The notes under the pieces: model-generated
The model's input: the letters and a program-made list of their open reading frames with translations, nothing else
Databases searched by the model: none
Told to the model about the DNA's origin: nothing
Translations under genes and position numbers: made by a program
Shown: piece after piece, positions 1,686 through 63,773 of the stretch
How positions within the stretch are numbered: position 1 is the first letter of the stretch
Layout: the number at the start of each line of letters is the position of its first letter
Assembly: GCA_041650855.1 (NCBI GenBank)
Contig: JBAZKJ010000001.1
Span: forward strand, 551,078-615,077
DNA length: 64,000 nt
Direction of reading: 5' to 3'
From: Candidatus Margulisiibacteriota bacterium
GTDB taxonomy: Bacteria; Margulisbacteria; WOR-1; O2-12-FULL-45-9; XYB2-FULL-48-7

Positions 1686-1761
1686 TTTTTTCTCCTCCCT
1701 CTTGCGAGCGGACCGGATACTGCAATGAACTTGCTGCTATTGTATAATGTTATTAGTCACC

Positions 1762-15970: not shown

Positions 15971-18900
15971 GTGAAAAAGCTCGCCGCCGCTTTCATTATT
16001 ATTATGCTGTCCGCCGCCATTGCCTTGGCGGAAAGCGCCTACCCGCAGATCGACATCTCCGGCTTCAAGAAATGGGAACAGAAAAAGGTCGAGGTTGACC
16101 CCGCCCGGAACTACTTCTCCGGCCTGACCCAGCTCGGCGGCTACTACCAGACCTATTCCGGCGGGCCCTGGCAGGAACGGCTGCAGCTCCGGATCCTCGG
16201 CCAGCTGTCGGAGAATCTCTCGGTCGCTTATGACCTGGATCAGCAGCCGGAAACGCCGGAAAAGTTCGACGTCAAGGTCAAGTACTACAACACCGAGCTG
16301 ACCTTCGGCGATTTTACCGCCAACTTTACCGGCAACGAGTTCGTTTCCGCTTCCAAGTACCTGAACGGCGTCATGCTGACCGCCAAGGAGCCCTGGTACG
16401 ACGTCGTCGCCGTCCCTTCCGCGAAGCTCAAGTCGCAAACCCAGGCGCTGACCTCGCAAAAAGGGACGAATACCAAAGGCCCCTATAATCTCGGCCACGG
16501 TTCGATCGTCGAGGGCTCGGAGCAGATCCAGCTCAACGGCATCTACCTGACGCGCAACGTCGATTACACCATCGATTATTTTGAAGGCAAGGTGACCTTC
16601 AACCGCCTGCTCAACGAGACCGACGAGTTCAAGTACTCTTACGAATACACCAACATCCTCGATCTGTTCTTCCCGTCGCTCTCCAAACGCGACTTTTTCG
16701 GTTTTCAGAGCCGCTTTACCATCGACCCGGAAAAATTCGGCAAGCCCGCGCCCAAAGAGGAGCCGGTAATTTCGCCCGCGCGGGAGGTTTTCCCCTCTTC
16801 CGGCTCGGCCGAGCCCGAGGTCCAGGAAGAAGAATCGTCCGGCCGTTATCGGGTGCGCAACGCCCCGTTGGTCAAGTTCAGTGAAACCCTCTCCTTTATG
16901 GGGACCCAGCTGAAAAAGAACGAAGATTATATCATCCGTTACGATACCGGCGAGATCAAGCTGATGACCAGGTTCCTGCCGACTTCGGAAGAAGCGCTGG
17001 CGATCGAGTATTCCTATTACCAGACGTCCGGCGAAGTGGAAATGGTCTCCGGCATCGGCAGCCGCGGGCCCTACCGGACCTCGTTTCGGCAACTGGTGCC
17101 CGAGAGCGAGCGGGTCGAGGTTGACGGGAAGCTTTTTGTCCGGGACCTCGATTACACCATCGACTACGGTAAAGGGGAAATGCTGTTCGGCGTGGTGATC
17201 GGGCCGACGTCGCAGATCAAGATCGGCTACCGGCACAGCGTACTGGCCCTGCCGCCGGAAACCCCTTCCAAGTTCCCGAAAGAGCTGAAGCTCGGCGCCA
17301 CCTATTTGCGTGAGTCGGCCAAGAAAAGCACCACCAGCGCCCCCACCTCGGTGATCGAATCCTTTACCGGCCAAACCGCGATCACCAACGGGCATATCAT
17401 TTACCTAAAGAACCGGCCGGTCGCGACCACCGCCGAGGCAGCCATCGTGGTCCGGCTCTTCCAGGGCGGCGTGAGCCGCGAACTGACCTGGGAGGTCGAT
17501 TACGCCGTCCCGACCACCGAGAGCGACCCGACCGGCCAGACAATCGTGACCCCCAACGTGCCGCTCGCCTATATCACCGACCGGAGCGACCCGAGCGACG
17601 GCTACGATACCGGCTCCCTCTGGCTCAACAACGACCGGCTTAACATCCAGCCGACCGACGAGATCACCGTCACTTACGGTTACACCAAGAGCATCGTCAG
17701 CAAGTACAGCGGGGTCGGCGACGGCACCCGCGGGCCGTACTATCTGCGCAACACGCTCAATATCGTGCCGGGGACGGAAACGGTCCAGGTCTGGGAACAG
17801 GGCGCTTCGGCCATCACGACCTACACCCGGAACACCAGTTTCGACGCCAATGCCGGCGACACCGGCTATTCGATCAATTACAACAACACCAACCCGTCGA
17901 TCACCTTCAACACCGAGCTGTCCACGACCAAGAATTTCCAGGTGATCTACCAGTACGTCCCCTCGTCTTCCGACCAAAGCGGCGACATCGCCCAGTCGGC
18001 TTTCGGCCTGGACGGCGGCTTCAAGATCGGCGACGTCTTCAAGATCGACTCTTCCTACGCGAAGAGCGAGAGCGACCAGGTCTTTGTGGCGGAAACGACC
18101 AATGAAACGTTCAGCGGCAGCGGGACCAAGACCTACGTCCTCCATTCCGGCGCCGACCTGATCGACGGCTCCGAACAGATCTTCGTCAACAATAAATTAT
18201 TGAACCGGGACATCGATTATTTCATCAGTTATACCAAGCCCGGCCAGTTCAATTTCTACTACATCACCCCGACCACGCTCGACGCGATCTCGGTCCAGTA
18301 CAACTACCAGTCGGCCTCCGGGGTCGTGGCCGGCACCAAGGTCAAGACCGACACCGCTTTCCGGCTCGGCGCCGAGACCCGGCTCTGGGGCGACATGCTG
18401 ACGATCAACGGTACGACCAAGCGGATCGGTTTCGATTTCTCGCCGCTCGGCAGCACCGCCATCGGCAACGGCTCGGAATACGAAGAGTACAACATGAACT
18501 TCAAGCCGACCTGGCAGCAGTTCTTCAGCAACTACTCGTACAAGTTCAACAAGAGCCCGATTGGCACCACCCGCAAGACTTTCCTGCGCACCTACGACCA
18601 TTCGATCGCGACCGGCGTCAATCCGGGCGGCTTGGCCAAGCTCGATCTCGGTTACCGCCGTTTCGACTCGCTCGACGACCCGTTGGCCAACGACGCCCTG
18701 CACAACAGCGACAATCTCCAGGAATCCTATTCGGCCGGCCTGGCCCCGGTCGACTGGTCCCGCGGGCCGTTGACCCTGAACCAGAAATACGAACTGCGCA
18801 AGACCACGTCCAAGACCGACACTGTCGACCGCACGGCGAACCTTTCGACCTCGACGATCGATTATTACCGCGCCGGCGGCGGCCTGAAGTTTACCGACCG

Positions 18901-20014
18901 TTTTTCCGCGGGGATCGATTTCCAGTACAACGAAACGACCGGCCTCAACTCGCAGGAAACCGTCGCCAACAACACGCAGTCGATCGACAACGCCTATAAC
19001 GCCCAGCTCGACCTGACGATGCTCTTTTTGCAAAAGTGGATCGCCCGGGCCTCGTTCCAGGACCACCAGGACCTCAAGTCGCTGCCGACCCCGGAAAGCT
19101 CGGTCAAGACCAAGAACGAGACCTACCACATGGACCTGACCCCGTTCTCGATCCTGACCGGCTCGCTCGATCATAACCGGCAGGAACGGACCTCTTACGT
19201 GACCGGCGGGGAAAACCCGCTCAGCCTGCGCACCGCCGGCTCGGCCCGGCTGACGCCGTTCTCTTTCCTTTCCCTCGGCGTCAACGGGAGCAAGAGCGAG
19301 ACCATCCCGGAAACCGGTTCTCTCTACAAAGCGACCGGCAGCGCCAAGGCCGGCGATCTCGACTTCACGCCGCTCTCGCTCTCGTTCGCCCGGCTCAACA
19401 CCCACTTTGCCGTGGCCAACACCCGGCAGACCGGCCCGCAGGGCACCGTGCCGGTTTCGACCCTGACCGATACCTTGTCGCAGAATTACACGCTCAACCT
19501 GAGCCCGGTACCGATCCTGCCGCTGACCTTCGGCTTTATCTCCGAGGACTACAAGAACAAGAATAACTCGCCGACCGCGCCGGTCACCACGGAAACGCAG
19601 AACCAGACCACCACGGCCAACGCCACTTTGACCCTCCCCTTCCTGCCGCAGTTGGCGGTCGGGGCGGATTACAACCAGAAGATCACCAAGAATCTCTTGA
19701 CCGGCGACGCCCGGCCGAAAACGGTGACCAATGGCAAAGCCAGCTACCAGGTTTTCAGCTGGGGGCAATTGATCTACGACCTGTCGCAGGAGATCAACAA
19801 GGGCGAGGTCCAGGCCGGTTCGGTGGTCGATCTTGACTTGGTCAAGACCACTACGACGATCAGCATGAACATCACCATCCCGGTCGACAATCCGGTGCTG
19901 TCAAACTTTAACGTGCTGGCTTCGATCAAGCAGGTGGATTACATCAACAATAAGAACCATAATGACGACTTCAAGGCGAAACTGATCTCGTTCGAAGGGA
20001 CGATGAACTTTTAG
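15971..20014 (+). CDS. very large (1347 aa) secreted beta-rich outer-membrane/surface protein with internal repeats and C-terminal Phe
   Basis: Signal peptide. Repeated modules of the form DYTIDY ... GKVTF ... Y.Y. Rich in Thr/Asn/Tyr/Gly like beta-barrel outer-membrane proteins. Terminal residue is F. GTG start 7 nt after a TGtTATAAT box. Confidence 0.65.
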   Translation: MKKLAAAFIIIMLSAAIALAESAYPQIDISGFKKWEQKKVEVDPARNYFSGLTQLGGYYQTYSGGPWQERLQLRILGQLSENLSVAYDLDQQPETPEKFDVKVKYYNTELTFGDFTANFTGNEFVSASKYLNGVMLTAKEPWYDVVAVPSAKLKSQTQALTSQKGTNTKGPYNLGHGSIVEGSEQIQLNGIYLTRNVDYTIDYFEGKVTFNRLLNETDEFKYSYEYTNILDLFFPSLSKRDFFGFQSRFTIDPEKFGKPAPKEEPVISPAREVFPSSGSAEPEVQEEESSGRYRVRNAPLVKFSETLSFMGTQLKKNEDYIIRYDTGEIKLMTRFLPTSEEALAIEYSYYQTSGEVEMVSGIGSRGPYRTSFRQLVPESERVEVDGKLFVRDLDYTIDYGKGEMLFGVVIGPTSQIKIGYRHSVLALPPETPSKFPKELKLGATYLRESAKKSTTSAPTSVIESFTGQTAITNGHIIYLKNRPVATTAEAAIVVRLFQGGVSRELTWEVDYAVPTTESDPTGQTIVTPNVPLAYITDRSDPSDGYDTGSLWLNNDRLNIQPTDEITVTYGYTKSIVSKYSGVGDGTRGPYYLRNTLNIVPGTETVQVWEQGASAITTYTRNTSFDANAGDTGYSINYNNTNPSITFNTELSTTKNFQVIYQYVPSSSDQSGDIAQSAFGLDGGFKIGDVFKIDSSYAKSESDQVFVAETTNETFSGSGTKTYVLHSGADLIDGSEQIFVNNKLLNRDIDYFISYTKPGQFNFYYITPTTLDAISVQYNYQSASGVVAGTKVKTDTAFRLGAETRLWGDMLTINGTTKRIGFDFSPLGSTAIGNGSEYEEYNMNFKPTWQQFFSNYSYKFNKSPIGTTRKTFLRTYDHSIATGVNPGGLAKLDLGYRRFDSLDDPLANDALHNSDNLQESYSAGLAPVDWSRGPLTLNQKYELRKTTSKTDTVDRTANLSTSTIDYYRAGGGLKFTDRFSAGIDFQYNETTGLNSQETVANNTQSIDNAYNAQLDLTMLFLQKWIARASFQDHQDLKSLPTPESSVKTKNETYHMDLTPFSILTGSLDHNRQERTSYVTGGENPLSLRTAGSARLTPFSFLSLGVNGSKSETIPETGSLYKATGSAKAGDLDFTPLSLSFARLNTHFAVANTRQTGPQGTVPVSTLTDTLSQNYTLNLSPVPILPLTFGFISEDYKNKNNSPTAPVTTETQNQTTTANATLTLPFLPQLAVGADYNQKITKNLLTGDARPKTVTNGKASYQVFSWGQLIYDLSQEINKGEVQAGSVVDLDLVKTTTTISMNITIPVDNPVLSNFNVLASIKQVDYINNKNHNDDFKAKLISFEGTMNF

Positions 20015-22224
20015 TTGAGGACGATTATCTTGCCCCGCCCGATGACTTTCCGGTCCGCGGTGATCTGGTAGAAGTAAACGCCGTTCTCGACCGGCTCCCC
20101 GTACTGGTTCCGGCCGTTCCAGGCCGGGCCGTTGTGCCCGGCTTTCCCGCCGTCCTCGCCCGCTAAGTAATTTTGCCGCCAGATCAGGTTGCCGTTCAGG
20201 TCGAACAAATAGATGGTCGCGTCGAAATTGCCGGCCAGAGAATAAACGAACGCGGTCTCGGCCGTGGCCGAGCGGTTCAGGGGATTGGGGAGCGCGTAAG
20301 CCAAAGGGACGCCCGGCTGCGGCTCAACCTCTTTGGTGGGGGTTTGCCGCTCGACCTGCACGATCACGCTGTCCTGGCCAACGTTGCCGGCCAGGTCGGT
20401 GGCGGTCAAACGGATAGTGTAAACGCCCGCCAGTCCGCTTGTTTCCCAGGTGCCCAGCGCGCCGCCGCTTACCGCATTATAGTATTGGCCGATCGCCTGG
20501 AAAGCGGTCGGGTTCAGGCCCGGGCCGTACTCCAGCCGGTAGTTGTCCAGGTGATCGTCCGTGGCTTTGCCGACGATCTGGAGCCGGCCGGTGACCGCCG
20601 CCCCCGCGGCCGGCGCCGTGATCGCCGCTTCCGGCGACGTATTGTCCACTATAATGGCGACCGAGGCGTCAGCCGAGGCCAGATCGGCCGTGATCACCCG
20701 CAGGCGGACCGTGTAATTGCCGTTCAGCCCGGCCGTATCCCAGAGCCCCAGGCGGCCGGCCGCTTCGACCGAAACAAAACTGCTGGTGATCAGCGCCTCC
20801 ACGGAGCCGCCGCGCAGCGCTTCCAGCTGGAAAGAGCGGAAGTTCCAGCCGCCCGCTTTGCCGGTCACTTCGACGATCCCGCGGGCGTAGGTCCCGCTCG
20901 GCGGCGCGTCGATCTCGGAGATCACCCCGGCCAGGGCGCGGTAAACGTTGATCCGTCCGCTCCCCAGTTTTCCTTTGTACAGCGGGTTCAGGTCATCGAT
21001 GTCGTCGGCCGCTTCGCTGATCTGGCTCATCACTTTGTCGACCGTCATGCCCGGGCTCAAGCCCCTGACGAGGGCGGCCAGCGCCGCGACGTAGGGCGAA
21101 GCCAGGGAGGTCCCGTTCCAGCCGCTGCTGTAACCGCCGTCCTTGTCGGTCGTGTAAATGGCGCTGCCGGGGGCGGTCACGTCGACCCAAAGGCTGTCCG
21201 CGTAACCGACAACATCTTTCCGGCTGTAATTGGAAGCCTGGGTCCGGCCGGTCTCGCTGTCGATCCCGGTCCAGACCGATCGTTTGTCGCCGGTGTCGGT
21301 CGCGGCGACCGCGATAACGGTCGGATAGACGGCGGGATAAGTGTTCCAATCGACGCTCCCGTTGCCGGCGGCGGCCACCAGGATTATCCCCTCATCGTAT
21401 GCGTCCTGGCAGCGGTCCCTGAGGTTCGCCGGGTTCTCTTCCGCGTAACGGTCGACCCCGGTGTTATACTGCCCCAAACTCAGGTTCGCCACGGTTACAT
21501 TGACCCCGGTCGATTTGAGCGCCGCCAGGTAAGCCAATGCCTGGGAAATGGTGGAAACCAGCCCGCTCCCCGTGCTGTCCAGGACCTTGATCGGCAGGAT
21601 CTTGCAGTTCCAGTCCAGGCCGGCGATCCCTTTGCCGTTATTGCTGACCGCGCCGATCACGCCGGAGATCGCCGTGCCGTGCCCGTAATCGTCCAGCGGG
21701 TCGTCGTCGTCGTTGACGAAATCCTTGGCGTAGGCCAGGTTAACGCGGCCGACGAAATCTTCGTGGTTATAATTTATCCCGGTATCGAGGACGGCGACCA
21801 GGACCTCGTTGGTGCCGCTCGTCTTTTCCCAGGCCTGGGGGGCCGCGATCTTCGGCAATCCCCACTGCTGGGGGTAGTAAGGATCGTTGGGGATGACCTC
21901 AAAAGCGCGGACGCGCGAATCGGGAGCGGCGGTAACGACGTTGGCGTCTTGCCGGAATTCGTCCGCCGCCGCGCTGGCGTCCTTGTCCTTGGGCAGGACG
22001 ACCAGATAGTCGTCCGCCAGATAGGTCCAGTCGGGGCGGATCCGCAAGGCGGCGGCATAAAGCGGCTTGACCTCGACCGCATTATATTTGGCCGCCAGCG
22101 CGCGGACCGATGAGGCGGATACGCCGCGCGCCTTGAACTTGACGATCAGCTGATTGGGGCCTGCCGCTTGAGCGGCGCAGAAAAGCAAACAGCAGACGAT
22201 AAAAGTTGAAAGCAGCCGCGACAT
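20011..22224 (-). CDS. secreted subtilisin-like serine protease (peptidase S8) with I9-like propeptide and T9SS-type/FlgD-Ig-like C-terminal domain
   Basis: Signal peptide. Catalytic motifs DTGINYNHEDF, HGTAISGV and GTSLASPYVAALAALV. C-terminal 80 aa is NGVYFYQITA ... GKIIVLN. Confidence 0.9.
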   Translation of the reverse strand: MSRLLSTFIVCCLLFCAAQAAGPNQLIVKFKARGVSASSVRALAAKYNAVEVKPLYAAALRIRPDWTYLADDYLVVLPKDKDASAAADEFRQDANVVTAAPDSRVRAFEVIPNDPYYPQQWGLPKIAAPQAWEKTSGTNEVLVAVLDTGINYNHEDFVGRVNLAYAKDFVNDDDDPLDDYGHGTAISGVIGAVSNNGKGIAGLDWNCKILPIKVLDSTGSGLVSTISQALAYLAALKSTGVNVTVANLSLGQYNTGVDRYAEENPANLRDRCQDAYDEGIILVAAAGNGSVDWNTYPAVYPTVIAVAATDTGDKRSVWTGIDSETGRTQASNYSRKDVVGYADSLWVDVTAPGSAIYTTDKDGGYSSGWNGTSLASPYVAALAALVRGLSPGMTVDKVMSQISEAADDIDDLNPLYKGKLGSGRINVYRALAGVISEIDAPPSGTYARGIVEVTGKAGGWNFRSFQLEALRGGSVEALITSSFVSVEAAGRLGLWDTAGLNGNYTVRLRVITADLASADASVAIIVDNTSPEAAITAPAAGAAVTGRLQIVGKATDDHLDNYRLEYGPGLNPTAFQAIGQYYNAVSGGALGTWETSGLAGVYTIRLTATDLAGNVGQDSVIVQVERQTPTKEVEPQPGVPLAYALPNPLNRSATAETAFVYSLAGNFDATIYLFDLNGNLIWRQNYLAGEDGGKAGHNGPAWNGRNQYGEPVENGVYFYQITADRKVIGRGKIIVLN

Positions 22225-38394: not shown

Positions 38395-39497
38395 AAATAA
38401 TGGTCAGCGCCGGGGAGGTCTCCGGCGATGTCCACGGCTCGTACCTGGTCAAGGAGCTGAAAAAGCTTCGCCCTGACCTGGCGTTTTTCGGTCTCGGCTC
38501 CGAACGGCTGGCCGAAGCCGGTGTTGATATTAGATTTGACATCATCAAGCGCGGTTCGATCGGGATCCTGGAAGCCCTGCCCAATGTTTTCCCGCTATTT
38601 TCTATTTTCCGCAAGGTCAAGAAGCTCGTTTTAGCGGAAAAGCCTGATCTTGTCATCCTGATCGACTCGCAGGGGATCAACCTGCCGCTCGCCAAGTTCT
38701 GCAAAGCGGTCGGCATCAAGACTGTTTACTACATCGCGCCGCAGGAGTGGCTCTGGGGAACGCCGCGCGGCGTTAAACATGTCGCGCAGATCGTCGACCT
38801 GATCGTCGCTATTTTTCCGCGCGAATACGAAGCATATAAGGCCGCCGGCGCCAATGTCATCTACGAGGGGCACCCTTTGATCGACATTGTCCAAGCCCCC
38901 CAGCCCCTTAGTCCCCGATCCCCTAGTCCCCGTATTTCCCTCTGTCCAGGAAGCCGGATGCAGGAGATCGGGGGGCTGTTGCCGATCCTGTTAAAAGCCG
39001 GTGAATTGATAAAAAAGGAGCTCCCTGACGCCGAGTTTCTCATCCCGGTCTCGTCGCGCAATCTCTTTCAGGAGATATTCGCCCTGGTCGGCGACTTCCG
39101 GCCGATGGCGGTCTTCGGCAAAACGTATGAGACCCTCGCTTCGTCCAATCTAGCGATCTGCACTTCCGGAACGATCAATTTCGAAGCCTCCCTGCTCGGT
39201 GTTCCCAACATTATGACCTATAAATTATCCCGGCTGACTTACTGGGCCGGCAAATATATCCTGAAGATCGACCGGAAGATCAAATATTTCTGCATGCCGA
39301 ACATTCTGATGGATAATTTAGTCATCCCTGAATTGGTGATGGAAAACGCGACCGCGGAAAAGATCGCTCAAGAAGCTTTGGCTATTTTGCGCGACACTCA
39401 GCGGCAGGAGAAAATGAAAAAGGAGTTCGTTAAACTAAAAGGGGAACTCGGCCGGCCGGGAATGATCGGCCGGATCGCTAAGTCTATCCTCGCCTAA
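38391..39497 (+). CDS. lpxB: lipid-A-disaccharide synthase
   Basis: [14 protein letters not shown]-terminus is typical of LpxB. ATGA overlap with the previous gene. The ORF-track N-extension to 37881 is a frame artifact. Confidence 0.9.
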
Positions 39498-43518: not shown

Positions 43519-44706
43519 TTAGTCAACCAGCGTCATCTTCACCTTGCCAAGCAGGCGATTGTCGTCCTTGGCCAGGATGGTGCCGACGTAGATGGCGTTG
43601 CCGGCCAGGTATCCCTGGTCGCTCCGGCCATCCCATTCAACCTTGTTGACGCCGGCCGAGCCGCCTTCGCTGCCGGCCAGGCAGTTCCAGCGCTTGATCC
43701 GCATGCCGCCGACGCCGATCAGGTAAATGTCGATATTGGCGTCGGTCGACAGGGTGTACTGGATGTAGACCTTCTTCTGCTTGGAGATGCTGAACGGCGA
43801 CGGATAGGTGATCGGCGTGCCGATCAGGCGGACCGGACCGCCCATCACTTCGACCGAGGCGATCTCGGTAGCGGTCGTCGCGGCGGCGATCAGGCCGCTG
43901 GAAGTGGCTTTGACCTTGAACGAATGCTCGCCTTCGCTGAGCGCTTCTTCAAAGGTGTATTTAACGGTCATGCTGCTAACTTTCCCTTCGTCGGCTCCCG
44001 TTCCCGCCGCGTAAACCGTGGAAGCGACGTTGGCGGCGGTCAGGGAGAGCGTCCTCGCGGTCGCCGTTCCCTCGTCGACAACGATCGAGTGCGATTCGAT
44101 GTTCCGGGCCAGGGTGAACGGGCTGTCCATCCCCATTTCCACCTTGATGTCCGGGGTGCTGGAAATAACGAACTTCTCTCCCTTGGCGACCAGCACTTTT
44201 TGGTAGAGGCGGTTGCCGAACCAGATCTTGATCCGCGGGGCCGGCTCGCCGCCGACTTCGGTCGTGACGACTATGGCCAGGCCCTTCCCTTTGGCCAGGA
44301 TCAGCGTCCCCGAGGCGAGGTCGAGCCCCGCGCCGGTGATCTTGACGCTGACCGGGTCTGATCCGTAGCCGTTGGCCGGGTCGCTCGGGTTGTCGTTGGG
44401 AATGGAAACATAGTATGTTTCGCCGACCGTCAGCGAGCTGAATTTAAGCCCGTAGGTATTTAACATATACTGCCCGGTGGCCTTGGCGACCCCGGCCAGC
44501 CCGATCTTATCGAAAGAGTATTTCCCGGCCATCGCTTCATCGGCTGTTTTGTAAAAAATGACGTAGCGCCCTTCCACCGTCTTGCCGTCTTCGGAATCCT
44601 GCGCTCCGCCCTTTACCCAATATTGCGGATAGAACGGCAGGGTGTACGCGACTACCGCCGCCGCCGCTATCAACGCTATTAACAGTCCGATGTAAGCTCT
44701 TTTCAT
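43519..44706 (-). CDS. secreted surface-operon protein: N-terminal CarboxypepD_reg-like (YWVKG) module, Ig-like middle, T9SS-type/FlgD-Ig-like C-terminal domain
   Basis: Signal peptide. PFYPQYWVKG ... VIFYK module shared with the genes at 46771 and 49493. C-terminal YPSPFS ... VEWDGRSDQGYLAGNAIYV ... KMTLVD. SD GGGAAGGAA. Confidence 0.8.
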   Translation of the reverse strand: MKRAYIGLLIALIAAAAVVAYTLPFYPQYWVKGGAQDSEDGKTVEGRYVIFYKTADEAMAGKYSFDKIGLAGVAKATGQYMLNTYGLKFSSLTVGETYYVSIPNDNPSDPANGYGSDPVSVKITGAGLDLASGTLILAKGKGLAIVVTTEVGGEPAPRIKIWFGNRLYQKVLVAKGEKFVISSTPDIKVEMGMDSPFTLARNIESHSIVVDEGTATARTLSLTAANVASTVYAAGTGADEGKVSSMTVKYTFEEALSEGEHSFKVKATSSGLIAAATTATEIASVEVMGGPVRLIGTPITYPSPFSISKQKKVYIQYTLSTDANIDIYLIGVGGMRIKRWNCLAGSEGGSAGVNKVEWDGRSDQGYLAGNAIYVGTILAKDDNRLLGKVKMTLVD

Positions 44707-49460: not shown

Positions 49461-49492
49461 ATTATCTCCCTCCATTAATTTATCACTACCTT

Positions 49493-56360: not shown

Positions 56361-58265
56361 TTAGTATGTGTCCCAGTTCAAGAGGTCTTTCTTCAAGACC
56401 TGCTGCACGTAATCGGTGCGATAGAGCATCTCCACCGTTTCCGCTCTGGTCAATTGCTTGTTCGGCTCAAAGTTCAGCCCTTTCAGATACTGCAAGATAT
56501 TAACTTTATTGCTCCCGGCGATGATCTTGGCCGCCCAGTGGTTGCCGGCGACGTCCGGGAAGTCGCGGGCGTAGGTCTCTTCGCTGACGCCGGCAAAGCG
56601 GGCGATCATTGCCAGCCCTTCGGCGCGGGTGATCTTGCCGTTCGGTTTAAAGACGTTGCCGGGGTAGCCCTTGACGACGCCGAGCGCCGCCGCTTCCGCG
56701 ACGAACGCGCTGGCCCAGTGCTTCCCGGGGACGTCCTTGAACGCCGCCGCCGTTAACGCCGCCTCTGCCGTCGACGCGTTCTGTTTCCTGGTCTTCATCA
56801 GTAGTGAGCACATTTCGGCGCGGGAAATGCCGCCCTCCGGCTTGAACGTGCCGTCGGGATAACCGGTGATGATGTTCTGCATCGCCAGGAGCGAGATCGG
56901 CTTGTCAACCCAGTAGCCGATGACAACGTCCGGGAAGGTCGTTAAGCGGAGCAGGCGGACCTTGGACGAGCCGACCAGCTTGCCCCGGTCGTCGCTGCCG
57001 GCCAGGATGATGCCGTTCTTGCCGATCTTCAGTTCCACCTCGGTCGAGATGTCCCCCTTCAGGTTCATCTTGACCGGCTGGCCGTTGATCGTGGCGGTGC
57101 GGATCCGGCTGTTCGCCGCGTGCGCGTGGACCCGCGTCGCGCCGGCAAACGTGATCGTCTTGTCATCGGGCGAAGTAAAGGTGAATGGGTCCTTGCTGCT
57201 CTCAACGGCCGGCGGCAGGTAGTTGTAAGAGAGCGAGAAGAAATGGTTGTCGATATTCGGCGCGCCGGCGAAAGCGTGGTAGGCGTAGTCGAACCGGAAC
57301 CCGCCGAAATACATGCCGACGCCGTAAGTCGGATCGGAATAAGTCGTCAGGCCGCCGTTGCCGTCGCCGCCGGCATCCTGGTCGATACCGGCCCGGATCG
57401 CCAGGATCGAGACCGGCTTCCATTCCGCGCCCAAATGCATGACCGGCGGATACCCGGCCAGCGAAGGATGGAGGTCGATGTCGGTCATGATCTTGAGCTC
57501 GTGGTCCCCGTATTTCGCCAGCGCTTTATCTTTGCCGAGCACGGAAAAGGCGGCGCCGGTCTCGATCACCGCCGGGTACGATTCTTCGTGGCCGCCGGAG
57601 TATGTCAGTTTGCCGCCCAGGCCGGCGGGGAGAGCGTTTTGCACCGCCATACCGAGCGCTAGCCAGCGCAGCGGCGTGTATTTGATGCCGAAGTCGAGCT
57701 CCTGGCCGGAGGCGTCGCCGTTCTGGATCCCGTCGCCGTAGAGGCGCGCCCGGAATAATTTAACACTGGTGCCGAGCGTGATCTTGTCCGCTTGCGGGAC
57801 CTGTTTGACGTAAGGGATCTTGTCCGCTTTGTTGCCGTAAGAGAAGACCATGGCGGCGTTGTCGTTCCCCATGGTCGGCTGGCTCGGGTCGATCGTGTAG
57901 ATCGGATCGGCCGGGTCGGACCCCGCTTCGATCGTGGTGGCGAACGCCCCGGCGATCGAGGTCCCGGCGTAACCAAAACCGAAAACGCCGTACTCGGTCG
58001 GATATAAGCCGGAAAAAGAGAGATAGCTGTATTCGTCGAGGAATTTACCGGACATAGAAGACAATTGCCACCCGGAAACGTCGCCCATGCCGGCCGGGTT
58101 GGTGTACATCGCGCCGGTATCGTCGGCCAGGGCGATATACGCTTTACCAAGCCCCAGGACGCGGCCGTTCGGTACGTATCTCGTCGGGTCTTGCGCGACA
58201 TACTGGGCGCAGGCAACGCCCGCCAGTAAAACGGCGGCCACTATGGCGGTTAATATTCGTTTCAT
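56361..58265 (-). CDS. outer-membrane FadL/OmpP1/PorV-like beta-barrel with three C-terminal SLH domains
   Basis: Signal peptide. N-terminus LGLGKAYIALADDTGAMYTNPAGM matches the FadL signature ([25 protein letters not shown]). Three C-terminal SLH repeats (GYPDGTFKPEGGISRAE, GYPGNVFKPNGKITRAE, ... NKQLTRAE). Confidence 0.8.
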   Translation of the reverse strand: MKRILTAIVAAVLLAGVACAQYVAQDPTRYVPNGRVLGLGKAYIALADDTGAMYTNPAGMGDVSGWQLSSMSGKFLDEYSYLSFSGLYPTEYGVFGFGYAGTSIAGAFATTIEAGSDPADPIYTIDPSQPTMGNDNAAMVFSYGNKADKIPYVKQVPQADKITLGTSVKLFRARLYGDGIQNGDASGQELDFGIKYTPLRWLALGMAVQNALPAGLGGKLTYSGGHEESYPAVIETGAAFSVLGKDKALAKYGDHELKIMTDIDLHPSLAGYPPVMHLGAEWKPVSILAIRAGIDQDAGGDGNGGLTTYSDPTYGVGMYFGGFRFDYAYHAFAGAPNIDNHFFSLSYNYLPPAVESSKDPFTFTSPDDKTITFAGATRVHAHAANSRIRTATINGQPVKMNLKGDISTEVELKIGKNGIILAGSDDRGKLVGSSKVRLLRLTTFPDVVIGYWVDKPISLLAMQNIITGYPDGTFKPEGGISRAEMCSLLMKTRKQNASTAEAALTAAAFKDVPGKHWASAFVAEAAALGVVKGYPGNVFKPNGKITRAEGLAMIARFAGVSEETYARDFPDVAGNHWAAKIIAGSNKVNILQYLKGLNFEPNKQLTRAETVEMLYRTDYVQQVLKKDLLNWDTY

Positions 58266-58271
58266 TCTTGT

Positions 58272-60236
58272 TTATCTAACGGCTGCCGGCTTGATCATGA
58301 TCCGGTTCTCGACGATCTTCTTGTTCTTTTCGTCAAAAACCAGCAAGGTGTAAAGTCCCGACGTCAGATAGGGGGCCATTTTCGCCCTTTCGATCACAAA
58401 GTCGACTTTGTTCGTCGCCGGCGGATTGAACGTGAAGGTTTCTTCCCACATCTTGCGGCCATAGCCGTCGCTCAGCACCGCTTTGAGGTAGCTGATCTGC
58501 ACACCCTTGGGAAGACGGATAAAGGCGGGCATGGCCCCTTTGGTTTCCGGGTCCCAGGTCTTTTCTTTCATGCCGCCGTAACCGATGGCGCCGTTCCCCG
58601 CCCCGGTCGCCGGGACGATCGCCCCGGTCTCGCCCGTGCTGGGGACAGCCACCCGGACCAGGAGATATTGCTGGCGGTTGTTGCCGGCCGCGTCTTCGGT
58701 ATAAATGATCAGGGCCGCGTCCTTGCCGCCGGCGGTAGTCGGCAGGCTGAACTGATACCCGGCCTCAATGCTGACCGGCGAAATAAGGCTGACCGAGCTT
58801 TCCGGAATGAGATAGTCATAGCTGGCTCCATCCAGATTAATAATGAACCTGACGATCTTGGTCATATTATTGCTGGAAGTAGCCTCGATCGTCATGATGT
58901 CGTTGCGGCTGATCGTAGTCCGCGGGGTAACGACGCTCCCTTCCGTGGTCGGCGGCAGGTAAACGCTGCGGGAAGCGCCGGCGCCGAACCAAACCCGGGG
59001 GATCTGGACCGTCGCCCCGTTGGCGGCTACCACCAGCGCCCCGGTTTCCGTGGAAACGGTCGCGTCGCCGTTGGTGACCGTAACATCCCAGGCCCCGGTG
59101 GTTACCTCCGGAGTGGTTATTATATATGTAAGAAGCCGGCTGTCCGATTCATAGCTGGAATAGAGCACGGTTATGCCGCTTTTCCCTGTCGCCTCAAAGG
59201 TCGCGTAGGCGCCGGCAATAAACCCGCTGCCGACAACCTCCACCGTCCCCATCCAGCCCGATTTGATCGAACTTGGGGTTACTCCGGTGATCCGGGGAGA
59301 TTCCAGCTTGTAAATGTTCCCGCCGGCACCGGCCAGGAAGGCAAAAACCGAGATATTTGGGCTGGTTCCGACCGTTTTGACCGAAATATCCCTAATATCG
59401 GCGGCGGGCGTCAGGGCATAAGTGGTCCAGCTTAAGGCGCCGTCCGCGGTCAGTGCGACCGTGCCGGCATCCCCGACCACCCAACCAAAGCCTTCTGTGA
59501 CAAAATAAAGGGAATTAAGGTTCGCGACCAAGCCGGCGGAGATCTCGCTCCAATTTGCCCCGCCGTCGAGCGATTTCAAGACCAACCCGGAGGCGCCGAC
59601 CGCGTAGCCGACCGAAGCACTTGCCAGCATCACGTCCCTGACCGCGCCGGTGCCGGTCCAGACCTCCGTCCCATTACGGATAATAGCGTAATTGACCGAG
59701 TCTTTCCTTTGGCCCCAAACGAAGATGTCCCCGGCCTCGCTTATATAAGCGCCCTGGATATTCAGATTGCTTTGCAGTTCGGGAGTCCAGTTTGCGCCGC
59801 TATCGGTCGATCGATACAGGTAGCTGTCGCCGGATGAGCCGTTGGAGGCGGCGATCGCCCGGGCCGCGCCGCTGAAGCCGATCTTGAGCAGGTTTGCCGT
59901 GCCGACCCCGGCGAGCGCGACGGGAGAGAACGTTTCGCCGTCATCGAGCGACTTGAGCAGGGTGCCGGACGCGCCGGCGGCATAGAGCTCGCCGGCTGCC
60001 GGGGCAGCCACGTCATATAATGTTTGCGCCGTACCGGTAACTTTTGCTTCCCAGGTGACGCCGCTGTTGCCGGTCTTTAAAAAGGTCCCGTTATTGCCGA
60101 CGGAGAAGCCGATGGCCGAAGCGGGGAAATAACAAGCCTGGAGATCTTGAGTGGTCGTTGACTCTTGCGTTACCCATCCCGCCCACGCGAGGGGAGCAAG
60201 CAGAGCCACGATGAAAAAACTTTTCATCAGCCGCAT
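58272..60236 (-). CDS. secreted Ycf48/BNR-like beta-propeller protein with Ig-like domains; first gene of surface operon
   Basis: Signal peptide MRLMKSFFIVALLAPLAWA. The GTG 60258 in the ORF track lies inside the promoter. Ycf48-like repeats (GNNGTFLKTGNSGVTW, ... SLDGGANW, ... TADGALSW). C-terminal beta-sandwich possibly CTD-like. Confidence 0.75.
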   Translation of the reverse strand: MRLMKSFFIVALLAPLAWAGWVTQESTTTQDLQACYFPASAIGFSVGNNGTFLKTGNSGVTWEAKVTGTAQTLYDVAAPAAGELYAAGASGTLLKSLDDGETFSPVALAGVGTANLLKIGFSGAARAIAASNGSSGDSYLYRSTDSGANWTPELQSNLNIQGAYISEAGDIFVWGQRKDSVNYAIIRNGTEVWTGTGAVRDVMLASASVGYAVGASGLVLKSLDGGANWSEISAGLVANLNSLYFVTEGFGWVVGDAGTVALTADGALSWTTYALTPAADIRDISVKTVGTSPNISVFAFLAGAGGNIYKLESPRITGVTPSSIKSGWMGTVEVVGSGFIAGAYATFEATGKSGITVLYSSYESDSRLLTYIITTPEVTTGAWDVTVTNGDATVSTETGALVVAANGATVQIPRVWFGAGASRSVYLPPTTEGSVVTPRTTISRNDIMTIEATSSNNMTKIVRFIINLDGASYDYLIPESSVSLISPVSIEAGYQFSLPTTAGGKDAALIIYTEDAAGNNRQQYLLVRVAVPSTGETGAIVPATGAGNGAIGYGGMKEKTWDPETKGAMPAFIRLPKGVQISYLKAVLSDGYGRKMWEETFTFNPPATNKVDFVIERAKMAPYLTSGLYTLLVFDEKNKKIVENRIMIKPAAVR

Positions 60237-60374: not shown

Positions 60375-62441
60375 ATGTATAAGAAACTCTTGTGCGCGGC
60401 TCTTATTGGCTTGGCCCTGCTGACTTTTTCCCATCCAGCCGCAGCCGCTTTTGACGGCCCGCAAACCTTTACCGTCACGGAAACCGGCGATGACGATAAC
60501 GAAGGGACGTTCCGCTGGGCTGTCTATCAGTCCAATTCCAATGTCGGCCACCGCGACACGATCGCATTTAATATTCCGACTTCCGATCCCAGCTACCAGT
60601 CCGGCGACGGTGCCCACTGGTGGAAGATCGCGCTCGGCCCGCCGATCAATATCACTGACGAAGTGATCATCGACGGCACCACCCAAACGACTAATGTGGG
60701 AAATGTTAACCCCTACGGCCCTGAGATCCTGCTGACTAAATCGGGCGACGCGATGAACGACGGCTTGACGATCGCCGCCTCCAACGTGACGGTCAAGGGG
60801 CTTTGCATCAGCGGCTTTGGCCAGAACGGCGTTTATGTTTACGGCGGGGACGTCAGCAACACAGTTGTCTCCGGTTGTTACATCGGAACCAACGCCGTCG
60901 GCTCCGCCGCCTTGGCCAACACCAAGAACGGCATTTATATCCTGACCGGCCCCGACTACACCCTGATCGGCGGTTCGTCCGAGGCGGAGCGGAACGTCAT
61001 TTCCGGCAACACCGAGAGCGGCATTTATTTCTCGTCCCGCGGTGAAGGGGTGGAATCGCTGATGAACCTGCACTCCACGGTCATCGGCAATTATATCGGG
61101 ACCGACCGGACCGGCGCGGCCGCGATCCCCAATGGCGATTACGGCGTTTGTCTCCGCGAATATACCCGCCTCACCCGCATCGGCGGCCTTAATGCCGGCG
61201 AAAGGAACGTCATTTCCGGCAATACCAGGGCCGGTGTCATAGTCGGCCATATAACCGCTTACTACACCGTGATCGCCGGCAACTATCTCGGCCTTGACCG
61301 GACCGGTACGGCCGCTTTAGGGAACGGCACCCATGGCGTCCTCTTCCAGGCCAAATACACGACAGTTGAGGCGAACGTCATTTCCGGCAATGCCGCCGGG
61401 ATATCCTTTAACGGCACCAGCGCCACCAATGCCGTTATCCGGGGAAATTACGTCGGCACCGACGCGACTGGCGCCTCTGCCCTGCCGAATACGATGGCTG
61501 GCATCGTGGCGTGGAACGGCGCCAACAGCAACGTGATCGGCCCGGGAAACATTATCGCTTTTAACCCGGCCGGCCTGGCCCTCAGCGGCGAGACGACTGT
61601 CAGCAACCAGATCACCCAGAACTCGATTTTCCAGAACAACGGCCTTGGCATTTTCCTGCTGGACGGGGCTAACCATCTGTTGGCCGCGCCAACCATCGAA
61701 TCGGCCGTCTTTAACGCCGACGATACCGTTCTGACCGTGACCGGCGTCTGTACTCCGTCGGCGATCGTGGAGCTCTTCCGCTCCGACCCCGCCGGCGCGT
61801 CGCTCCTGACCGCCGAGGGAAAAACCTATCTCGGCTCGGCGACCGCCGATCTTACCGGTAACTGGTCCGCCGCCCTGACCGGCGCGGCGGGCGGCGGCCA
61901 GGTCTGCGCCACGGCGACTCAGCCTGTCGCAAGGATCGTCGCTAACTTTGTCCGGCCTTCGGCCGCCCGCATCGAGCCGGATTATTTTAATACCTCCGCG
62001 TTCTCGGGGCGCTACCCAGTGCCGACGACAACGACCACCACCACGACGACCACGACTACCACTACGCCCAGCTCAACGACGTCGACGGTGACCACCACCT
62101 CAACGACCACGACCACCACCTACCCGATCCCGGACGGATCGGTCGTTTCTCGGATCTATCCGTGGATCACCGGCGCGGCCGCCGGCGGTTCCGCCAGGAT
62201 CGATCTCGACTTTTCCTCCAAGGTGGCGGGCGAAGGTTTTGTCCGGGTCGTGGATAACCTGACTGGCGAAGAATATCTCGGCTGGACGCCTGTCACCCTG
62301 AAGGTCGGCTCCAACCTGGTCCCGGTCACGCTGGTCGACCCGCGGGCCTACGGCAAGCTGATCATCGTCATGTTGAAAGTTCCGTCCGGTGACGGCGGCT
62401 TCAAGCTCTACAGCATTAAAACGATCGTCGAAAAGAAATAA
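60375..62441 (+). CDS. secreted right-handed parallel beta-helix (PbH1/NosD-like) surface protein with poly-Thr linker
   Basis: Signal peptide. At least 8 PbH1-like repeats (NVISGNTESGIYF, NVISGNTRAGVIV, NVISGNAAGISFNG ...). 30-aa poly-Thr linker and a C-terminal beta domain. Consensus promoter TTGATT-17-TATAAT upstream. Confidence 0.8.
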   Translation: MYKKLLCAALIGLALLTFSHPAAAAFDGPQTFTVTETGDDDNEGTFRWAVYQSNSNVGHRDTIAFNIPTSDPSYQSGDGAHWWKIALGPPINITDEVIIDGTTQTTNVGNVNPYGPEILLTKSGDAMNDGLTIAASNVTVKGLCISGFGQNGVYVYGGDVSNTVVSGCYIGTNAVGSAALANTKNGIYILTGPDYTLIGGSSEAERNVISGNTESGIYFSSRGEGVESLMNLHSTVIGNYIGTDRTGAAAIPNGDYGVCLREYTRLTRIGGLNAGERNVISGNTRAGVIVGHITAYYTVIAGNYLGLDRTGTAALGNGTHGVLFQAKYTTVEANVISGNAAGISFNGTSATNAVIRGNYVGTDATGASALPNTMAGIVAWNGANSNVIGPGNIIAFNPAGLALSGETTVSNQITQNSIFQNNGLGIFLLDGANHLLAAPTIESAVFNADDTVLTVTGVCTPSAIVELFRSDPAGASLLTAEGKTYLGSATADLTGNWSAALTGAAGGGQVCATATQPVARIVANFVRPSAARIEPDYFNTSAFSGRYPVPTTTTTTTTTTTTTTPSSTTSTVTTTSTTTTTTYPIPDGSVVSRIYPWITGAAAGGSARIDLDFSSKVAGEGFVRVVDNLTGEEYLGWTPVTLKVGSNLVPVTLVDPRAYGKLIIVMLKVPSGDGGFKLYSIKTIVEKK

Positions 62442-62465: not shown

Positions 62466-63773
62466 ATTATCAGGAGGGGGTCGCTCGCGCTGCTTGCGCT
62501 CGCGCTATTCCTTGCCGGCGCGGGAAACGCGGTCTATTTTAGCGGCAGCACCGGCGCCCGGCCGTTAGCCCTGGGCAACGGCTACGTCGGCCTGGCCGAC
62601 GACGCCGCCTCGCTCTTTGCCAATCCCGCCGGCCTGGCTTCCCTCGGCCGCCCCGCCGTGACCAGCATGTATTCCCAGCCGGATGCCGATACGACTTTTT
62701 CCTCGCTCGGCGGCGGCTTGCCGTTTTTCGGCGGCTTTCTCGGCATTGGCTACCGCGCGCAAACCGTGGCCGGCGTTCAGGTCTCGACCGAAGTTTTCAG
62801 CTTCACCGACCAGGACATCATGTTCGCTTACTCGCGCCAGCTGGGAGAGCAGCTTTCGTTCGGCCTCGATTACCGCCTTCTCGCCAAAGGCCCTTCCCGC
62901 GCCTATCCCGGCTCGGACGGGGCCACCGCCAACGGCAGTTCGGCGGACTTTTCCCTGAAATATAATTACCAGCCGAATTTTTCTCTCGGCCTGGTCTGGC
63001 GCGAGATCGGCGGCCGTTTTAATTACCAGAACGGCGCCGTCGAGAACTTCCCGACCAATGTTACCGTTGGCGGCGCTTACCGTTGGCGGCCGGACCTGAC
63101 CTATACCCTTGACGTCAACAAGGAAAACGGCCAACCTCTCCTGCTCCATTCCGGACTGGAATGGTCGCCGGCCTCGCTGATCTCGCTCCGCTTCGGCGTT
63201 GACCAGACCGCCGCCGGCGCTTCCGCCCATTCCAACATTACCTCCGGCCTCGGCATCCACCTGGGCGGTTTTGCCATCGATTACGCGCTTTACAGCTGGA
63301 AGGACCAATCCCGCGCTTCGATCCACTATTTCTCCATCAGTTACGCGCCGCCCGCCAAGAAAGCGGCCGTCCCCGTAACTTATTATCCGACGCCGGAACC
63401 GACCCCCGAGGTCAAGATCCCGCGCATCAGCTTCCCCGACCTGCCGGCCAAGCACTGGGGGAAGAACGAGATCGAGCAACTCGCGACCGCCGGCGTCATC
63501 TGGGGATATCCCGACGGGACGTTCCAGCCGAACAAAAAATTGACGCGCGCCGAATTCGCGGCGATCGTGGCCGCCGCCAAGCACCTGGAACCGGCGCCGG
63601 TCGACAACGCCAACAAGCTAATCACCCGGGGAGAAGCCGCCAAATTGCTCGACCTGACCGAGCCCGTTTCCCGCGCCAAAGCCCCTCTCACCCGGGCGGA
63701 AGCGGCACTGATGATCTACCAGACCCCGTTCGGCCAGGCCGCGATCAAGCGTTTGCCGCCGCTCGCCGACTGA
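62466..63773 (+). CDS. second FadL/PorV-like outer-membrane barrel with C-terminal SLH domain; probable ATT (or ATC) start
   Basis: The ORF track starts at GTG 62658 but the frame is open back to 62442. The upstream frame encodes a perfect signal peptide IIRRGSLALLALALFLAGAGNA plus the FadL motif LALGNGYVGLADDAASLFANPAGL. SD AAGGAGGG lies 6 nt before ATT 62466. Confidence 0.6.
   Translation: MIRRGSLALLALALFLAGAGNAVYFSGSTGARPLALGNGYVGLADDAASLFANPAGLASLGRPAVTSMYSQPDADTTFSSLGGGLPFFGGFLGIGYRAQTVAGVQVSTEVFSFTDQDIMFAYSRQLGEQLSFGLDYRLLAKGPSRAYPGSDGATANGSSADFSLKYNYQPNFSLGLVWREIGGRFNYQNGAVENFPTNVTVGGAYRWRPDLTYTLDVNKENGQPLLLHSGLEWSPASLISLRFGVDQTAAGASAHSNITSGLGIHLGGFAIDYALYSWKDQSRASIHYFSISYAPPAKKAAVPVTYYPTPEPTPEVKIPRISFPDLPAKHWGKNEIEQLATAGVIWGYPDGTFQPNKKLTRAEFAAIVAAAKHLEPAPVDNANKLITRGEAAKLLDLTEPVSRAKAPLTRAEAALMIYQTPFGQAAIKRLPPLAD

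Follow-up and report, generated by a model that had tools for sequence, protein, structure and literature searches.

A PorV-like outer-membrane barrel fused to SLH repeats in Margulisbacteria and its association with genes for proteins ending in C-terminal sorting-type domains

Margulisbacteria and Saganbacteria are sister lineages of Cyanobacteria, and type IX secretion (T9SS) is usually assigned to Bacteroidota and the FCB group. To our knowledge, the attachment of the outer membrane to the wall in diderm Terrabacteria has been credited to OmpM alone. A stretch of 64,000 nucleotides from a Candidatus Margulisiibacteriota MAG, referred to here as the window, raises the question of what function would be served by an outer-membrane barrel that resembles PorV, ends in SLH repeats and is encoded next to surface proteins, some of which carry a C-terminal sorting-type domain (CTD). 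A sequence-only reading of the window had described two such barrel genes and proposed a PorV-like, cargo-binding barrel that is itself anchored to the wall. The original observation was confirmed by our computational analysis, and the hypothesis built on it is supported.

The first of these genes, gene A (56361..58265, minus strand), is an open reading frame of 634 aa in which a signal peptide is followed by a plug and a barrel of 14 strands, then by an Ig-like spacer and finally by three SLH repeats. Residues 21-349 (57219..58205, minus strand) form the N-terminal plug, which carries the NPAG motif, and the 14 β-strands. In the AF2 model (pLDDT 87.3) the plug, the strands, the Ig domain and the three SLH repeats are all visible, and DSSP placed the 14 long strands of the barrel within residues 66-349. 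The proposed FadL-type N-terminal signature, LGLGKAYIALADDTGAMYTNPAG, is present at residues 37-59. The spacer (residues 361-440; 56946..57185, minus strand) is a β-sandwich that is all-beta in the model and matched Pfam Glucodextran_B at 22.9 bits, which is under the cut-off. Two barrel loops, 108-131 and 210-232, were at least as conserved as the strands; both probably face outward, and their conservation would suggest a conserved partner outside the cell. More than 200 full-length homologs of gene A were found in Margulisbacteria and Saganbacteria. The family's sole annotation is 'SLH domain-containing protein'.

The SLH module occupies residues 441-634 (56364..56945, minus strand). Three complete repeats had been claimed for gene A, and they are borne out by one SRAE and two TRAE motifs, at residues 481, 546 and 606, and by the Pfam SLH model (PF00395; 108 bits, E 1.6e-31), with R-A-E of all three repeats invariant across 43 homologs. 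By HMM match and TRAE motif gene A is thus a member of PF00395, and its paralog B scored 58.5 bits. In Foldseek the SLH region superposed on the three-repeat SLH domains of Sap and SpaA, which bind pyruvyl-SCWP, with TM values of 0.77-0.79. Since the module lies C-terminal to the barrel, it is expected to be periplasmic, where it would bind the wall.

Paralog B (62466..63773, plus strand) encodes 435 aa from an ATT start and consists of the barrel, one full SLH repeat and two truncated TR(A/G)E helices. The frame reads through from 62466, and no ATG, GTG or TTG occurs in it from the upstream stop to position 62658. The ATT at 62466 lies 8 nt downstream of AAGGAGGG and is the start of a flawless signal peptide. 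Public gene calls shorten this protein to 368 aa, a mis-call that we attribute to the ATT start. The single SLH repeat previously assigned to paralog B was recovered as the one complete copy (E 6e-16), and the two truncated helices add to it, so that TRAE-like motifs occur at residues 360, 387 and 409. A third PorV-like-SLH gene, which encodes paralog C (435 aa), is found immediately beyond the window (L001:885-2192).

The barrel itself had been described as FadL/PorV-like, and both the profile and the fold comparisons agree with this description while fitting PorV/PorQ better than FadL. NF033709, the NCBIfam model of the PorV/PorQ family, scored 92.6 bits on paralog B against a cut-off of 90, and 57.7 bits on gene A, under that cut-off, in an alignment covering positions 11-326 of the 326 in the model. 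In contrast, the Pfam model Toluene_X/FadL (PF03349, gathering threshold 29.7 bits) reached only 15.1 bits on paralog B, and PF03349 (FadL/OmpP1/TodX) gave no match on gene A at E <= 0.01. Assignment to either equivalog is not indicated, as paralog B scored 34.8 bits with NF033710 (PorV, cut-off 250) and 31 bits with NF033711 (PorQ, cut-off 220), and neither model matched gene A. PorP/SprF models of NCBIfam and Pfam were not among the matches of the PorV-like-SLH proteins at E <= 0.01. The best solved structures for gene A in Foldseek were the PorV chains 8gl6_F (E 1.4e-12, TM 0.64) and 6h3i_F (TM 0.69), with TodX and FadL ranking behind them. When profiles of the PorV-like family (A1 and A4) were compared with PDB sequences, they retrieved SLH proteins only, or nothing, and did not match solved PorV; the link to PorV therefore rests on NF033709 and the fold.

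The fusion of this barrel with SLH repeats was found only in Margulisbacteria/Saganbacteria/WOR-1, whereas PorV-like barrels without SLH occur in the same lineage and in Elusimicrobia, Cloacimonadota, Zixibacteria, Bacteroidota and others. The architecture had been called unusual, and this restricted distribution, together with its absence from the OmpM tethers listed for two cross-checked genomes, upholds that view. Canonical OmpM tethers are present in Saganbacteria alongside the PorV-like-SLH proteins, and the SLH repeats of the latter may thus be dispensable for tethering. We also considered whether Witwinowski et al. had already counted PorV-like-SLH proteins as OmpM; they are absent from the lists for the two genomes that were cross-checked, Saganbacteria CG08 and WOR-1 RIFOXYB2_FULL_42_35. 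Our literature search returned no papers on PorV with an SLH domain, nor on type IX secretion in Margulisbacteria. The fusion of a PorV-like barrel with SLH is undescribed.

Three proteins of the window had been read as ending in CTD-like domains, the third of them tentatively, and the evidence differs among them. The S8 protease (20011..22224, minus strand; Peptidase_S8 E 6.5e-42) carries such a domain at 20014-20328, which scored 28-30 bits with TIGR04183 against a cut-off of 23. A secreted protein of 395 aa (43519..44706, minus strand) ends in the same domain (43522-43836; 33% identity to that of the protease, E 6e-16; local CTD HMM E 6e-36), and its orthologs lie near PorV-like-SLH genes at many loci. 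For the third, a BNR/Ycf48-like β-propeller protein (58272..60236, minus strand; PSII_BNR E 5.6e-17), the relationship of its divergent C-terminal domain (58275-58589) to the CTD family holds at the profile-profile level only (hhalign probability 95.5%, E 1.6e-8). This protein is encoded directly upstream of gene A, with a gap of 6 nt, and is the candidate cognate cargo of its product; the BNR neighbours of gene A orthologs have the canonical CTD. Directly upstream of paralog B, at a distance of 24 nt, lies a gene for a β-helix protein that has a poly-Thr linker and ends in a C-terminal domain of ~100 aa (60375..62441, plus strand), and this gene pair recurs beyond the window, where a DUF1565 protein (740 aa) is followed by paralog C. 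The two β-helix proteins share their C-terminal domain (38% identity), which hhalign found to be unrelated to the CTD family. The local CTD HMM detected neither the BNR nor the β-helix C-termini, and when the C-terminal 110 aa of each of ten surface proteins were compared with NCBIfam at E <= 10, the sole match was a weak one for gene 43519-44706.

The CTD family matches T9SS and FlgD_ig profiles alike. Within a 29-member alignment TIGR04183 matched 12 sequences (E < 0.01), the C-terminus of the PorU model 14 and that of the PorZ model 9, while in Pfam FlgD_ig matched 19/29 as opposed to 3/29 for Por_Secre_tail. As regards the distinction between a sorting domain and a generic FlgD-Ig fold, on which the sequence-only reading depended, the S8 protease passes TIGR04183, but in the family as a whole matches to FlgD_ig are roughly as frequent as those to T9SS type A. 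The proteins that carry the domain at their very C-terminal end are proteases, propellers and giant adhesins and not hook proteins. Genes ending in a CTD adjoin PorV-like genes at a frequency far above that expected by chance: 37 of the 87 PorV-like genes have one immediately upstream on the same strand, which accounts for 37/80 CTD genes, and for SLH-bearing barrels the proportion is 19 of 29 assessable copies. In at least eight other phyla, genes of barrels that lack SLH show the same upstream adjacency. This arrangement suggests indirectly that the PorV-like barrel may bind the CTD of its neighbour's product.

A possible exit for CTD-bearing proteins is offered by a conserved giant outer-membrane barrel of 1347 aa (15971..20014, plus strand), a candidate translocon whose gene is convergent with that of the S8 protease. 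Its relation to SprA appears distant and weak, with 42 bits for the SprA/Sov model TIGR04189 against a cut-off of 200. The family profile (A2) gave no match in the PDB even at E <= 10, and the relatives obtained in a single-fragment search measured 1300-2234 aa and included no bona fide SprA. The pairing of this gene with the CTD-bearing S8 protease is kept in L086 and L087, and in other genomes no SprA-related gene was found within 10 kb of PorV-like-SLH genes. The NCBIfam scan of window ORFs gave no match to PorK/L/M/N (GldK/L/M/N), PorU or PorZ, the PorU and PorZ models matching CTD portions only. The search for T9SS core genes, which covered the window, thus yielded the SprA-related barrel but neither PorU nor PorK/L/M/N.

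The reading that we favour, with a probability of roughly 0.6, is that of a static, wall-stapled anchor for the surface protein of the neighbouring gene, with export of the CTD-bearing protein via the SprA-related barrel. The products of genes A, B and C would be Sec-exported outer-membrane proteins, and each barrel would hold at the cell surface the CTD of the adjacent gene's product, in the case of gene A the BNR protein 58272-60236, much as PorV holds PorU, PorQ holds PorZ and PorP holds PG1035. Through its SLH module the barrel would be fastened to a wall polymer, probably pyruvylated, or to peptidoglycan, a task that PorE performs in trans for PorP in Bacteroidota and that PorV-like-SLH proteins would accomplish in one chain. 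The outcome would be a static staple that joins surface protein, outer membrane and wall. Because a wall-tethered barrel cannot diffuse, 'anchor' fits such a protein better than 'shuttle'. Domain architecture, fold, phyletic restriction and gene adjacency are computational results, whereas CTD binding, wall binding and the route of export are inferred; passage of the CTD-bearing proteins across the outer membrane through the SprA-related barrel is the weakest step of this scheme.

Comparison with known systems shows where precedents exist. PorV, the T9SS outer-membrane shuttle known from F. johnsoniae and P. gingivalis, shares with gene A the plugged FadL-superfamily barrel of 14 strands. It comes under NF033709, the model whose cut-off paralog B passes, and it is associated with CTD proteins, but it has no SLH or Ig extension, and it diffuses in the membrane, delivering cargo (PMC5562754). 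Moreover, unlike PorV, the PorV-like-SLH proteins are present in multiple copies, every one of them next to a cargo gene of its own, and belong to a phylum outside the FCB group. Closer in function are the attachment complexes in which PorU and PorZ are anchored via PorV and PorQ, respectively (PMC5562754), in which, as would be the case for the PorV-like-SLH proteins, a barrel of the PorV/PorQ family is the lasting anchor of a protein whose CTD is retained; sortase or A-LPS attachment, on the other hand, is without evidence for the PorV-like-SLH proteins. PorE, PorP and PG1035 form a complex (PMC9143113), and this complex and the PorP/SprF-like shuttles with genetically linked cargo follow the logic proposed for the PorV-like-SLH proteins, in which a barrel binds the CTD of the neighbouring gene's surface protein and is linked with a module for peptidoglycan binding (PMC9143113, PMC12618676). 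In Bacteroidota, however, the wall-binding PorE is separate from PorP, whereas the PorV-like-SLH proteins have barrel and wall-binding module fused in a single chain, and the cargo of PorP/SprF carries type B CTDs while the neighbours of PorV-like-SLH genes carry type A/FlgD-like CTDs. The OmpM/Slp/SlpA proteins likewise combine an outer-membrane barrel with a wall-binding SLH module in a Terrabacteria lineage. They differ in having only one SLH, at the N-terminus, together with a coiled-coil stalk and a barrel of the porin type that forms trimers, as compared to three SLH repeats at the C-terminus, an Ig spacer and a barrel of FadL/PorV type in gene A, which thus does not qualify as an OmpM. 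A precedent for a periplasmic SLH located C-terminal to an outer-membrane barrel is provided by the trimeric autotransporter adhesins of Negativicutes, although these differ in barrel family and function and unite passenger and barrel in one chain.

Other functions have to be weighed against a static anchor. OmpM combines tethering with nutrient uptake (PMC10628300), and the PorV-like-SLH proteins could be its FadL-barrel counterpart, namely an uptake channel for hydrophobic compounds that also ties the outer membrane to the wall. The FadL superfamily fold with its conserved NPAG hatch motif and the strong Foldseek matches to TodX, TbuX and FadL (E 3e-9 to 1e-6) agree with such a dual role. 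Nevertheless, we consider it unlikely, given that HMMs favour PorV/PorQ (92.6 and 57.7 bits versus about 15 bits at most for FadL), that PorV is the top fold match and that an uptake channel would leave the tight, cross-phylum adjacency to CTD-ending genes unexplained.

This adjacency also bears on the suggestion that the protein is an additional link from outer membrane to peptidoglycan without any cargo role, in which case the proximity of CTD genes would reflect clustering of envelope genes. Such a tether would be compatible with the intact SLH module and its invariant TRAE motifs, with a window rich in envelope genes (lpxA, lpxB, lpxC, asmA) and with the lack of an upstream CTD neighbour for 10 of 29 assessable SLH-bearing copies. 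It appears quite improbable in a lineage that already has canonical OmpM, all the more so as SLH-free barrels in other phyla show the same neighbour and the presumed outward loops belong to the most conserved segments. A role as a component of a flagellum-associated collar in the outer membrane and wall was suggested by two related genomes, in which the cluster lies directly behind the operon for flagellar export (fliM to flhA), and by the resemblance of the C-terminal domains to the FlgD Ig-like domain. Yet no flagellar genes were found among the scanned window ORFs, the other annotated neighbourhood, with the cluster beside hrcA-grpE-dnaK, is likewise free of them, and the proteins that end in this domain are not those of a hook; we therefore regard a collar function as very improbable.

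Beyond the wall-stapled anchor itself, a broader and more tentative proposal, which at present appears doubtful, is that Margulisbacteria and Saganbacteria possess a reduced T9SS-like pathway consisting of a SprA-related translocon of ~1350 aa, CTD cargo and a wall-stapled PorV-type receptor for each cargo gene. If this were true, the outer-membrane half of type IX secretion would extend beyond the FCB group; either it would predate that group, or Terrabacteria would have acquired it and refitted it with SLH. PorV-type barrels with SLH and CTD partner genes would represent a second class of SLH outer-membrane proteins and a one-chain equivalent of the PorP-PorE anchor. The finding also draws attention to an under-described gene pair, a CTD cargo gene followed by a PorV-like barrel gene, that recurs in at least eight further phyla, and it would provide a model for how uncultured relatives of Cyanobacteria may display proteases, propeller proteins and giant adhesins on their surface.

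The 634-aa ORF of gene A (56361..58265, -) begins with a Sec signal peptide, carries LGLGKAYIALADDTGAMYTNPAG at residues 37-59 and ends in three complete SLH repeats ((S/T)RAE at residues 481, 546 and 606), in each of which the R-A-E residues are invariant across 43 homologs. The AlphaFold2 model of the protein, computed from a 43-sequence alignment (pLDDT 87.3), comprises plug helices (34-62), 14 long strands across residues 66-349, an Ig-like sandwich (361-440) and three SLH helix pairs, so that the FadL/PorV-like barrel with C-terminal SLH repeats proposed by the sequence-only reading was borne out in a real ORF. By established barrel topology both termini of a 14-strand barrel are periplasmic, which places the Ig and SLH modules of protein A in the periplasm. 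Paralog B (62466-63773, +; 435 aa), for which one SLH repeat had been claimed, indeed contains one full repeat, together with two remnants reduced to a TR(A/G)E helix. No ATG, GTG or TTG was found upstream of 62658 in this gene, the frame of which is open as far back as 62442; judged from the sequence, the ATT at 62466, which lies 8 nt downstream of AAGGAGGG and opens a typical signal peptide with LALGNGYVGLADDAASLFANPAG after it, appears to be the start codon. Public gene calls use a later codon (368 instead of 435 aa), with loss of the signal peptide and plug. Past the right window end, paralog C (L001:885-2192, 435 aa) has an ATG start. It belongs to a tandem duplication (L001:885-4414) of a beta-helix/poly-Thr protein gene and a short PorV-like-SLH gene, in which paralog C is paired with a DUF1565 protein of 740 aa; a protein kinase gene comes next.

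The NCBIfam PorV/PorQ family model NF033709 (cut-off 90 bits) scored 92.6 bits against paralog B and 57.7 bits, with the whole model aligned, against gene A, whereas Pfam FadL (Toluene_X) reached just 15 bits for B and did not match A. The PorV-proper and PorQ-proper equivalog models remained far from their cut-offs, and sequence profiles of the PorV-like family did not reach solved PorV. When the model of A was compared with the PDB by Foldseek, the first matches were PorV chains from SprA-PorV complexes (8gl6_F, E 1.4e-12, TM 0.64; 6h3i_F, TM 0.69), with TodX, TbuX and FadL ranking below them. The barrel is of the FadL superfamily type and closer to PorV than to FadL itself; an uptake channel of FadL type with an added tethering role, one rival reading, would fit the superfamily fold, and the Foldseek ranking and family scores favor PorV. 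The SLH part of A matched the three-repeat SLH domains of Sap and SpaA (TM 0.77-0.79), the SpaA structure being a complex with pyruvylated ManNAc. These repeats alone would suit a pure tether, another rival reading; loops 108-131 and especially 210-232, which probably face outward, are among the best-conserved segments of A, consistent with a protein partner.

The strongest new evidence is gene adjacency. Among non-duplicate loci, 37 of 87 PorV-like genes had a CTD-ending gene on the same strand finishing -150 to +400 bp upstream, and 12 further ones had a CTD-ending gene starting just downstream. Conversely, the position immediately upstream of a PorV-like gene held 37 of all 80 CTD genes in these loci of about 20 kb, where uniform placement would put about 1 in 80 by our estimate, which is not a computed value. 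Genes for SLH-bearing barrels had such an upstream neighbor in 19 of the 29 cases with enough upstream sequence, and a CTD-ending neighbor on either side in 23 of 33. Orthologs of gene A adjoin BNR/Ycf48-like propeller genes in 11 of the examined loci, and in more distant genomes these propellers bear a canonical CTD. In the window, the BNR gene (58272-60236, -) is separated from A by 6 nt and the beta-helix gene (60375-62441, +) from B by 24 nt; beyond the window, the gene calls for paralog C and the second beta-helix gene meet at a single coordinate. In other phyla, including Elusimicrobia, Firestonebacteria, Zixibacteria, Ignavibacteria and Cytophagia, 1000-3300-aa proteins with the same CTD have barrels without SLH directly behind them (loci L035-L037, L041, L049, L056, L064, L067 and others). 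No mention of this recurrent gene pair was found in the literature consulted. A third rival reading, a flagellar collar, may be set beside the flagellar export operon (fliM ... flhA) that directly precedes the BNR/PorV-like-SLH cluster in two related genomes (L003:439-7408, L005:1-2769); none of the scanned window ORFs was recognized as a flagellar gene.

CTD-like ends had been proposed for three proteins. That of the S8 protease (20011-22224, -) scored 28-30 bits with TIGR04183 (cut-off 23), and that of 43519-44706 is 33% identical to it (E 6e-16). The possible third, on the BNR protein, went undetected by single HMMs, but its small C-terminal family and the CTD family aligned from end to end in hhalign (probability 95.5%, E 1.6e-8). 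Among 29 aligned members from the Margulisbacteria/Saganbacteria lineage, matches were to TIGR04183 (12/29), PorU C-terminus (14/29), PorZ C-terminus (9/29) and FlgD (14/29), while Pfam favored FlgD_ig (19/29) over Por_Secre_tail (3/29), and the class thus lies between the T9SS and FlgD labels. The poly-Thr beta-helix proteins upstream of B and C share a C-terminal domain (38% identity), for which no relation to the CTD family was found.

The leftward operon of 11 genes for secreted proteins (60260 to 39494) includes a third class of C-terminal domain, on proteins without family match (44717-46750, 48240-49475, 51101-52393, all -; weak mutual similarity, E about 1e-5), a 484-aa He_PIG Ig-domain protein (46771-48225, -) with two terminal dockerin-like repeats (DMDGNNYIDVVD... 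and DLDQNGLVDVID...), and a 1309-aa S8 protease (39494-43423, -) that includes FG-GAP and fn3 domains and whose acidic DTD repeat and final 13 residues look like the beginning of a Cys-rich C-terminal sorting signal without the membrane helix. Directly downstream of A, 53657-56335 (-) encodes an 892-aa secreted protein, possibly a trimeric surface fibre, with a C-terminal Peptidase_S74 intramolecular chaperone domain of the kind known from phage tail fibres and endosialidases; in locus L006 the A ortholog is likewise followed by a similar gene. The run of about 30 Thr/Ser ahead of the C-terminal domain in 60375-62441, together with a TMEM260/PMT-like O-mannosyltransferase gene (1747-3606, +), another of which adjoins PorV-like-SLH in locus L003, suggests that linkers are O-glycosylated. 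A second BNR/Ycf48-like protein (3610-4707, -) has a Thr-rich linker and a lipoprotein-type signal (LAGC), in a lineage reported without Lol.

The window is ordinary chromosome (G+C 55-62%) with metK, tuf and a plsX-fabH-...-fabF operon that includes acyl-CoA dehydrogenase and ETF genes; lpxC, a fabZ-lpxA fusion, lpxB and asmA indicate a diderm with LPS. The fusion joins FabZ (residues 6-142) and LpxA (150-407) in one 427-aa ORF (37111-38394, +). A candidate translocon is the product of 15971-20014 (+), annotated hypothetical (1347 aa, ending ...GTMNF), a giant outer-membrane barrel that is a distant relative of SprA and not SprA proper. TIGR04189 (SprA) matched it locally (42 bits, E 1.6e-11; cut-off 200), and some orthologs are named 'Cell surface protein SprA' in UniRef. 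The AlphaFold2 model of residues 148-1347 (pLDDT 84.9, about 32 long strands) had SprA chains as its top three Foldseek matches (E 4e-10 to 9e-10), yet TM was just 0.17-0.27. Among 1.84 billion representative proteins, 320 relatives were detected, many of 1540-1870 aa; sub-threshold SprA matches occurred in 7 of 24 scanned, none of which was bona fide SprA. The gene is conserved across Margulisbacteria/Saganbacteria, last after fabF, and in three genomes it follows fabF and faces a gene for a CTD-bearing S8 protease.

Full-length homologs of gene A (about 620-660 aa) numbered more than 200; their annotation is just 'SLH domain-containing protein', and all named ones belong to Margulisbacteria, Saganbacteria or WOR-1; family B is rare (7 close relatives). 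The barrel-only alignment, searched against one genome per GTDB species, gave 80 loci, in which local HMM analysis confined the SLH fusion to these three groups. They also have PorV-like barrels without SLH, which at 22-28% identity likewise occur in Elusimicrobia, Firestonebacteria, Cloacimonadota, Zixibacteria, Ignavibacteria, Bacteroidota, Bdellovibrionales and others. OmpM, defined as SLH plus barrel, has been reported from these phyla (Witwinowski et al.), and in the published lists for two genomes PorV-like-SLH is not among the proteins counted as OmpM. In Saganbacteria CG08, PIS29418.1 and PIS29419.1 are distinct from the listed PIS28895, PIS29212 and PIS30601, and in WOR-1 RIFOXYB2_FULL_42_35, OGC23703.1 is entered in the SLH column alone, with OGC24325.1 as OmpM. 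Canonical OmpM therefore coexists with PorV-like-SLH, which, in the two genomes cross-checked, is a distinct, unlisted class of SLH outer-membrane protein. As in A, SLH lies C-terminal to the barrel in Negativicutes trimeric autotransporters.

In T9SS, PorU and PorZ remain surface-bound through PorV and PorQ, free PorV being a diffusing shuttle (PMC5562754). PorP has two partners, the type B cargo PG1035 and PorE, which binds peptidoglycan (PMC9143113), and genes for type B cargo show linkage to their cognate PorP/SprF-like genes (PMC12618676). By analogy with these precedents, PorV-like-SLH would be a CTD anchor. The initial observation is thus confirmed and its hypothesis of an SLH-anchored, cargo-binding PorV-like barrel supported at the computational level, as an anchor rather than a shuttle, since the SLH tether argues against shuttling. 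Each PorV-like-SLH protein would then serve as a fixed anchor for the CTD of its neighbor's product, stapled to the wall by its SLH module.
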